A stretch of 64,000 nt of DNA, from NCBI RefSeq assembly GCF_057098645.1, contig NZ_CM169472.1; one strand, given 5' to 3'. A program made the position numbers and the translations under genes. Below the pieces are notes generated by a model, which saw only the letters and a list, made by a program, of their open reading frames with translations, did no database searches and had not been told where the DNA came from. Shown here piece by piece: positions 32,673 to 34,991 of this stretch (position 1 is its first letter; each line of letters begins with the position of its first letter).

Positions 32673-33680
32673 ATGAAGGCTGCAGTTGTTACGAAGGATC
32701 ATCATGTTGACGTTACGGATAAAACACTGCGCTCACTGAAACATGGCGAAGCCCTGCTGAAAATGGAGTGTTGTGGTGTATGTCATACCGATCTTCATGT
32801 TAAGAATGGCGATTTTGGTGACAAAACCGGCGTAATTCTGGGCCATGAAGGCATCGGTGTGGTGGCAGAAGTGGGTCCAGGTGCCTCATTAAAACTAGGC
32901 GATCGTGCCAGCGTGGCGTGGTTCTACGAAGGATGCGGTCATTGCGAATACTGTAACAGTGGTAACGAAACGCTCTGCCGTTCAGTTAAAAATGCCGGAT
33001 ACAGCGTTGATGGCGGGATGGCGGAAGAGTGCATCGTGGTCGCCGATTACGCGGTAAAAGTGCCAGATGGTCTGGACTCGGCGGCGGCCAGCAGCATTAC
33101 CTGTGCGGGGGTCACCACCTACAAAGCCGTTAAACTGTCAAAAATTCGTCCCGGTCAGTGGATTGCTATCTACGGTCTTGGCGGTCTGGGTAACCTCGCC
33201 CTGCAATACGCGAAGAATGTCTTTAACGCGAAAGTGATCGCCATTGATGTCAATGATGAGCAGTTAAAACTGGCAACCGAAATGGGCGCTGATTTAGCGA
33301 TTAACTCACGCACCGAAGACGCCGCCAAAATTGTACAGGAGAAAACTGGTGGCGCTCACGCTGCGGTGGTAACAGCAGTAGCTAAAGCTGCGTTTAACTC
33401 GGCAGTTGATGCTGTCCGTGCAGGTGGGCGTGTTGTGGCAGTCGGTCTGCCGCCGGAGTCTATGAGCCTGGATATCCCACGTCTTGTGCTGGATGGTATT
33501 GAAGTGGTCGGTTCGCTGGTCGGCACGCGCCAGGATTTAACTGAAGCCTTCCAGTTTGCCGCCGAAGGTAAAGTGGTGCCGAAAGTCGCCCTGCGTCCGT
33601 TAGCGGACATCAACACCATCTTTACCGAGATGGAAGAAGGCAAAATCCGTGGCCGTATGGTGATTGATTTCCGCCGCTAA
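32673..33680 (+). CDS. adhP: Zinc-dependent alcohol dehydrogenase (propanol-preferring)
   Basis: From [14 protein letters not shown] with Shine-Dalgarno AAGGAGG; zinc-binding CGVCHTD motif. Confidence 0.92.
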
Positions 33681-33825
33681 GAGGCCTTTGCTGCGACTGC
33701 CATGTTCGGGTTGCAGCATCGCACACTCTCCAACATGAAATGGCTAAATGGATTATTGTTGCGTAGGAAGGAACAATAATGATAGTGTTCCCAGAGAAGG
33801 AACGCTACTGAGAGTAAAGACACTA

Positions 33826-34110
33826 ATGAAAATGGCCAATCATCCCCGCCCGGGGGACATTATTCAGGAATCACTGGACGAACTTAATGTCAGCCTGCGC
33901 GGGTTTGCCAGAGCAATGGAAATTGCTCCCTCAACGGCAAGCCGATTGCTGACCGGAAAAGCAGCTTTGACGCCAGAAATGGCAATTAAACTTTCCGTGG
34001 TGATCGGCAGTTCGCCGCAAATGTGGCTGAATCTGCAAAACGCCTGGAGTCTGGCAGAGGCTGAAAAAACGGTGGATGTGTCGCGATTACGTCGTCTGGT
34101 TGCGCAATAA
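33826..34110 (+). CDS. yddM: HTH-type (HigA/XRE-like) putative transcriptional regulator YddM
   Basis: 94 aa from [22 protein letters not shown] track gives a longer 120 aa frame starting 33748. Confidence 0.75.
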
Positions 34111-34315
34111 AAAATGGCGCCTTTTACAGCGCCATTTGAAACTGATGACAAACGCAACATTGCCTGATGCGCTACGCTTATCAGGCCTACACGTTCACTG
34201 CAATCTATTGGATTTGAACGGTTTGTAGGCCGGATAAGGCGTTCACGCCGCATCCGGCATGAACAAAGCCTACGTTGTCTACAATATGAAAATGGCGCCT
34301 TTTACAGCGCCATTT
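34111..34315. repeat. BIME/REP cluster flanked by a duplicated terminator-like hairpin (AAAATGGCGCCTTTTACAGCGCCATTT at both ends)
   Basis: Two inverted REP-like motifs (GCCTGATGCGCTACGCTTATCAGGCCTAC and GTAGGCCGGATAAGGCGTTCACGCCGCATCCGGC) between two copies of the same ~27-bp hairpin. Confidence 0.6.
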
Positions 34316-34337
34316 TCAGCTTAAAGTTCAAAAGAGA

Positions 34338-34991
34338 TTATATCCCTTCTTCACTCTCTTTTTTCGCTTCTGCCTTCTCGATTTCACGATACCAGCGCGG
34401 ATGGTGTTTCTTCGCCCAGCGACGGCTCACCTTCCCTTCGATCATCCCTTTAATCGATCCTTTCACCCAGAATGCCATATACATATGGATCAGGATGGCG
34501 TGGATCAGGATGATACCCGCAGCCGCGTGGATCAGCAGGCTGTAGCGAACAACCTGCATCGGGAAGTACTGCGCAAAGTACGGACGCCAGATAATCACCC
34601 CGGTCACCAGCAGCACGAAAATCATGCTCATGATCGACCAGAACATCATCTTTTGCCCGGCGTTGTACTTACCGACATCCGCCACTTTATGCTCATTGCC
34701 TTTTAATACTTCGACAATGTTTAACAGCCACGGAATATCTTTCTTATCCGGGATGTTGTGATGCACAAAACGCACAAACATAAACATCAGTGCGACGAAA
34801 ATCGCAATGCCGAAGAATGGGTGCAAAATGCGTCCCATCTGCGGCGTACCGAAGGTTTGCGTCAGCCATTGCAGCGTCGGGAAGAAGAACGAAATCCCGG
34901 ACAGCGCCACCAGGAAGAAGCAAATCACCACGGTCCAGTGACAGGCGCGATCAATAAATTTGGTGCGCACAATCATTTTCGACTTACTCAT
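34338..34991 (-). CDS. fdnI: Formate dehydrogenase-N cytochrome b556 gamma subunit
   Basis: 217 aa from [12 protein letters not shown]; multi-pass membrane protein. Confidence 0.92.

Follow-up and report, generated by a model that had tools for sequence, protein, structure and literature searches.

The DNA analyzed here (the window) is a stretch of 64 kb in which maeA, adhP and yddM follow one another on one strand, with fdnI, fdnH and fdnG on the opposite strand (Table 1). Positions 33500-34400 are 100% identical to Escherichia coli O145 strain RM9872, in which RefSeq places the yddM coding sequence at the same coordinates, 33826-34110. Position 33826 is an inner start of a 120-aa open reading frame (33748-34110, plus strand).

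Table 1. Features of the adhP-yddM-fdnI region (positions in the window)
Feature	Position	Strand	Remarks
adhP	32673..33680	+	upstream flanking gene
yddM ORF, upstream in-frame extension	33748..33825	+	non-coding; overlies promoter and operators
putative operator O1	33757..33775		imperfect palindrome TGTTGC-N7-GGAACA; overlaps putative -35
putative -35	33759-33764		TTGCGT; within O1
putative -10	33781..33786	+	GATAGT; between O1 and O2, at the end of the N10 spacer
putative operator O2	33786..33804		palindrome TGTTCC-N7-GGAACG; covers expected transcription start
deletion scar	33805..33825	+	from alignments with toxin-bearing alleles; junction ~33811/33812
yddM CDS	33826..34110	+	94 aa plus stop; HigA-family antitoxin, XRE-type HTH, DNA-binding class
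bidirectional intrinsic terminator hairpin	34111..34137		between convergent yddM and fdnI; identical second copy at 34289-34315
fdnI	34338..34991	-	downstream flanking gene, convergent to yddM

The protein belongs to the HigA family, and PGAP already names it a HigA family antitoxin. It matches TIGR02607 (antidote_HigA) over residues 3-81 of 94 with 91.4 bits; this model, described as "HigA family addiction module antitoxin", is an equivalog with a curated cut-off of 47.7 bits. Pfam HTH_3 (PF01381) was likewise found, at 34.4 bits (cut-off 23; E=2e-8), and together these matches bear out the original prediction of an XRE/HigA-type helix-turn-helix (HTH). The window's YddM differs by two residues, E26G and T93A, from the chain in PDB entries 2ICP and 2ICT, "antitoxin HigA" of E. 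coli CFT073. It thus has the equivalog score and the XRE/Cro-type HTH of its family, and its own promoter carries predicted palindromic operators. One family feature, a position directly downstream of a HigB (PF05015) gene in one operon, is absent from the window; the orthologous locus has it in 1,329 genomes of E. coli as well as in outgroup genera. The window contains no complete type II HigBA module, the toxin having been deleted, and therefore holds an orphan antitoxin, not a toxin-antitoxin (TA) system.

Paralogues of this antitoxin are found on Stx1a- and Stx2a-converting phages (e.g. LC727903.1, 5857-6120; MG710528.1, 19243-19506), where the encoded HigA is about 49-50% identical to YddM and, in one record, is annotated beside a "plasmid maintenance system killer" gene. 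Since Stx phages encode such a paralogue, the chromosomal orphan may, in STEC hosts like the source of the window, be accompanied by a HigBA pair on a prophage. On its other side, yddM is separated from fdnI by a spacer (34111-34337) that contains a 178-bp unit made up of the bidirectional terminator hairpin AAAATGGCGCCTTTTACAGCGCCATTT and a REP pair. Strains 2013C-4465 and UID2309220003 have no extra unit, the window and UPEC 536 have one and K-12-like strains have two; judged from these spacers, the unit is a copy-number polymorphism. An Rfam scan of 33500-34500 returned sub-threshold matches only, to naRNA4 and ES036. Both are REP-derived families, the matches lie in the REP region, and they reflect REP similarity.

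The toxin is missing at the protein level throughout the window. We built a hidden Markov model (HMM) from 19 orthologous HigB proteins and searched a six-frame translation of all 64 kb with all filters off; the best match scored no better than E=2.4, and 33600-33900 gave no match at all. The spacer between adhP and yddM measures 145 nt, and the sole toxin trace in the window is a vestige, at the DNA level, of the last four toxin codons. Two further open reading frames, 34076-34228 (plus) and 33864-34253 (minus), were considered as toxin candidates and rejected, as they give no HMM signal and overlap yddM or REP sequence. The original prediction had held that no HigB/RelE-like toxin gene adjoins yddM and that the upstream frame, 33748-33825, has no toxin features, and had suggested a profile search for RelE/HigB remnants nearby. 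The spacer and the negative HMM search confirm the first statement, and the second also stands: the extension is not coding, because it runs across the conserved putative promoter and operators.

At orthologous loci the toxin is present and intact. In UPEC 536 a 92-aa reading frame lies between adhP and yddM, its TGA stop overlapping the yddM ATG by one base. The product matches PF05015 (HigB-like_toxin) with E=4e-17 and aligns with Rts1 HigB (4MCT) with E=1e-31, including the HPL and C-terminal EDYH motifs; Rts1 HigB, from Proteus vulgaris plasmid Rts1 (PDB 4MCT), is a ribosome-dependent endoribonuclease. A megablast search of 5,426 complete E. coli genomes recovered the toxin DNA from 1,329, always as a single copy; ATCC 11775, UTI89 and 536 are among them, and an annotated toxin gene is also found in E. 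coli NRG857c. Beyond E. coli, we scanned with YddM as query and one genome per species, which returned 36 loci. The yddM homologue adjoins a full-length toxin gene in E. albertii, in the cryptic-clade Escherichia sp. MOD1-EC7003 and in at least 10 Citrobacter assemblies, as well as in Buttiauxella, "Enterobacteriaceae bacterium 89", two Chimaeribacter and Erwinia rhapontici. E. albertii and two Citrobacter also retain the flanks, in the order adhP-higB-yddM-fdnI. Because the outgroups carry a full toxin abutting yddM, partly with the adhP and fdnI flanks, the paired state is evidently ancestral and the toxin-less state of the window derived.

These comparisons, which the original prediction had also suggested, place an intact HigB directly upstream of orthologous yddM and bear on the choice that it had left between a solo regulator and the remnant of a TA pair. 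The remnant option is upheld by the upstream HigB in 1,329 of the 5,426 E. coli genomes and in the outgroups and by the deletion in the window. The two options are not exclusive, as the remnant still looks like a working repressor. An intact toxin adjacent in related genomes had been named as the observation that would overturn the prediction; it exists and settles that choice, while the orphan status of yddM in the window stands.

Not every carrier of toxin DNA has a functional toxin gene. About 40% of carriers, approximately 12 of 30 evenly sampled carrier rows, have a 278-bp copy with a 1-nt deletion in higB, and in the sole 278-bp copy inspected (AVS0753, 1867-2144) PGAP annotates the gene as "frameshifted". 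A large share of "toxin-positive" E. coli would therefore also be functionally orphan. Toxin decay was also seen in other genera, with the antitoxin intact throughout. The toxin gene has an internal deletion in Citrobacter sp. FP75 and a frameshift in C. portucalensis A60 and Xenorhabdus lircayensis. X. khoisanae and Chimaeribacter californicus retain only its last 16-29 codons, the 5' part and the upstream operator region having been replaced. Decay that strikes the toxin first and leaves the antitoxin intact has arisen repeatedly and independently.

Pairwise and multiple alignments with toxin-bearing alleles define the scar in the window. About 270 bp are missing; the gap opens approximately 9 nt ahead of the toxin ATG and closes 12 nt short of the toxin stop. 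Positions 33812-33826 (GAG TAA AGA CAC TAA) are a mutated vestige of the last four toxin codons and the stop, which read GAG GAC TAT CAC TGA in UPEC 536. The junction, in which CTACTGA is joined to GAGTAAAGACAC, is common to three allele types: K-12-like, other STEC, and a diverged type (e.g. O111:H8; B1-type). The window has lost the Shine-Dalgarno sequence GAGGA that toxin-bearing alleles possess, and reads GAGAGTAAAGA instead. Near the junction about 11 of 31 nt differ from toxin-bearing alleles; just upstream of O1, divergence reaches about 50% over roughly 40 nt, and there is a 49-bp indel. The toxin was therefore not lost by simple excision from present-day toxin-bearing sequence: its loss took at least two steps, or else the locus recombined with a divergent allele.

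A census of the 5,426 complete E. coli genomes is nearly closed by three classes. Toxin DNA is present in 1,329, the window-type junction in 3,023, and the diverged (B1-type) allele, at 95% identity or more and with the same junction, in about 1,062; together these account for 5,414 genomes, of which approximately 4,085 (about 75% of E. coli) are toxin-less. The adhP-yddM spacer of O157:H7 strain TR01 (L004, 1102-1246) is a mosaic into which two segments from the toxin-bearing allele are set, 34 and 48 nt long, with the final 47 nt of higB among them. The replaced segments are exactly equal in length to their toxin-less counterparts, which suggests an assembly artefact, and a partial toxin match of this kind occurs in just 2 of the 5,426 genomes. 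An independent deletion in O157:H7 was rejected, as typical O157:H7 genomes show the window-type junction at 100% identity; the TR01 spacer looks like the product of reference-guided assembly rather than of a second deletion event.

Upstream of the scar, the window appears to have kept the control region of the ancestral operon. Four half-sites are conserved upstream of higB-yddM in five genera (Escherichia, Citrobacter, Buttiauxella, Chimaeribacter and Erwinia) while the flanks diverge, and at the position of the putative -10 the other genera have GATAAT, TATACT or TATGAT. The core GGAACA-N10-TGTTCC (33770-33791) is found a single time in the window, where chance predicts 0.00 occurrences. 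When the spacing was relaxed to N9-11, the yddM site was still the sole match in the 64 kb, and TGTTCC-N6-8-GGAACA had no exact match there. A generic sigma-70 consensus scan of 33600-34400 reported no site, the GATAGT -10 lying below the scanner's threshold, so the promoter is proposed solely from conservation across genera. By the same conservation, O1 and O2 are candidate binding sites for YddM.

The antitoxin gene itself is still constrained. The same YddM protein (WP_000781370.1, the common E. coli form) is encoded by K-12, O157:H7 TR01, FDAARGOS_403 (which has the diverged toxin-less allele), UPEC 536 and E. albertii, and toxin-less alleles differ from those of 536 or E. albertii by 4-13 synonymous changes. 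Between K-12 and E. albertii there are 13 synonymous and no non-synonymous differences, between K-12 and the B1-type allele 4 and none, and pN/pS against Citrobacter is about 0.1. Among the toxin-less alleles compared we counted about 9 synonymous and 3 non-synonymous changes, where approximately 28 non-synonymous changes are expected under neutrality; yddM is therefore under purifying selection. Two of those three belong to the window's allele (WP_001400396.1): T93A and E26G, the latter in helix 2 of the HTH domain. A related STEC allele combines T93A with E79A, and the non-synonymous changes seem to be concentrated in the window's O145/STEC lineage. In view of E26G and T93A, the window's allele could be less active than the common YddM.

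Altogether, we hold with high confidence that yddM is the antitoxin half of an ancestral higB-higA operon that lost its toxin through a deletion of ~270 bp, and that it now encodes a solo HigA that most likely represses its own synthesis and remains competent to neutralize toxin. The ancestral chromosomal operon lay between adhP and fdnI, and its toxin gene came first. The HigB reading frame was deleted in the lineage that gave rise to E. coli phylogroups A, B1 and E, including the O145 strain, which placed yddM directly behind the promoter and 5' leader of the operon. YddM most likely binds as a HigA dimer to two 19-bp palindromic operators of the TGTTCC-N7-GGAACA type. With one operator on either side of the -10, binding would shut down the promoter, once that of higBA, from which yddM itself is transcribed. 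Neutralization of the cognate HigB is very probably retained as well, since the protein of the common toxin-less allele is identical to that of toxin-bearing strains.

After the loss of its toxin, YddM could have been kept for its control of other genes, exapted as a stand-alone XRE transcription factor with a small regulon of which autoregulation is just a part, a reading that is not mutually exclusive with the deletion model and that we consider possible, leaning gently against it. In K-12, YddM has ChIP-exo peaks and a motif (PMC6237786), a CRISPRi screen reported new regulatory connections for yddM (bioRxiv 10.64898/2025.12.20.695731), and there is a precedent in P. aeruginosa HigA, which represses mvfR and binds the pel promoter (PMC6987408); the operator pattern, however, has no second copy in the 64-kb window. 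Strong purifying selection on yddM in toxin-less lineages, and the retention of operator and promoter across the toxin-less genomes, would likewise suit a regulator, yet the same protein is found in toxin-bearing strains and so gives no sign of adaptive change after toxin loss. Another possible use is as an anti-addiction or immunity factor that neutralizes related HigB toxins of plasmids or prophages, whether deployed in post-segregational killing or borne by phages. Enterobacterial plasmids commonly carry HigB homologues (538 plasmid records, of which 99 are from Escherichia), the Stx-converting phages carry their YddM paralogue beside a "killer" gene, the window comes from an STEC-type O145 genome, and the common YddM is unchanged from that of toxin-bearing strains. 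Against this, the genuine mobile homologues are all distant, with plasmid toxins at 59% identity or less and phage HigA paralogues at about 50%. TA pairs that have diverged to this extent are usually insulated from each other. Three near-identical "plasmid" matches come from records that look chromosomal, 253 kb to 4.9 Mb in length, and were rejected as close mobile copies of the toxin. We regard an anti-addiction role as unlikely.

We give almost no credence to the idea that yddM was never paired and is a solo XRE regulator resembling HigA, with the B2 toxin as a later insertion. The absence of the toxin from about three-quarters of E. coli genomes would fit such a history, but outgroups at growing distance have the toxin at the same position and with the same 1-nt overlap, partly with the adhP and fdnI flanks; in toxin-bearing genomes the operator lies upstream of the toxin and not of yddM, and the window keeps the vestige of the toxin's last codons. 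The position of the toxin in the outgroups and that of the operator refute this reading. Returning to the deletion model, a pN/pS near 0.1 and a fully conserved promoter and operator long after toxin loss lead us to a tentative and, in our estimation, rather doubtful extension of it: rather than a decaying remnant, YddM might be a domesticated repressor that selection retains in about 75% of E. coli for a job unrelated to its lost toxin, be it the control of a small regulon or cross-immunity to the HigB of Stx prophages and plasmids.

For annotation, our results mean that yddM should be described as an orphan HigA left by toxin deletion, and neither as a TA system nor as an unexplained regulator; beyond correct annotation the finding has little significance. 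The locus is a clean natural case of toxin-first decay of a chromosomal TA system in which antitoxin, operator and promoter have stayed under purifying selection, and it offers a convenient system for asking what orphan antitoxins are domesticated for, regulation or anti-addiction. The orphan status of the antitoxin at this locus is already known, and its structure has been solved (2ICP/2ICT). Bustamante and Vidal (2020; PMC7232551) reported that K-12 and HS retain the antitoxin alone of parE-2/higA-2 and that UPEC and AIEC strains keep the HigB/HigA-2 pair. What we add is the exact scar, the polarity given by the outgroups, the allele counts across 5,426 genomes, the conservation of the two-operator footprint and the purifying selection on the orphan gene.

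Among known systems the closest is TA20 (parE-2/higA-2; NRG857_07325/07320) of AIEC NRG857c, also present in CFT073, 536 and UTI89, which occupies the orthologous locus between adhP and fdnI. HigA-2 of these strains is 98% identical to the window's YddM and 100% identical to that of K-12, and the operator half-sites are the same. The window differs from TA20 in lacking the 279-bp toxin gene, in its altered leader and Shine-Dalgarno sequence, and in E26G and T93A.

More distant is HigB-HigA of plasmid Rts1 (PDB 4MCT/4MCX, 6CHV), which shares the toxin-first order, a HigA that is small, fully folded and has its HTH at the N-terminus, and a toxin that resembles the B2-type toxin in its HPL and EDYH motifs (E=1e-31). 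The layout of its hig promoter is similar to the one proposed here, and Rts1 HigA alone robustly represses Phig via two operators over the -35 and -10 (PMC12266136). Unlike the window's locus, the Rts1 system is plasmid-borne and complete; its HigA has 104 aa and is distant from YddM (E=2.5e-18), and its operator sequence is another one. P. aeruginosa HigA and P. putida GraA share the HigA class of fold (a Z of 12.6 to 2ICP has been reported) and bind palindromes in their own promoters, and P. aeruginosa HigA also controls other genes, such as mvfR and pel. In contrast to the window, their toxins are still present; the palindrome is TTAAC-GTTAA, and two dimers bind cooperatively. The chromosomal HigB-HigA of K-12 (YgjN-YgjM) has in common with yddM the name, a RelE-type toxin and an HTH antitoxin, but its HigA has 138 aa with a C-terminal HTH and its locus is fadH-rlmG. 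That locus shows the mirror image in NRG857c and CFT073, where it holds an orphan higA (PMC7232551).
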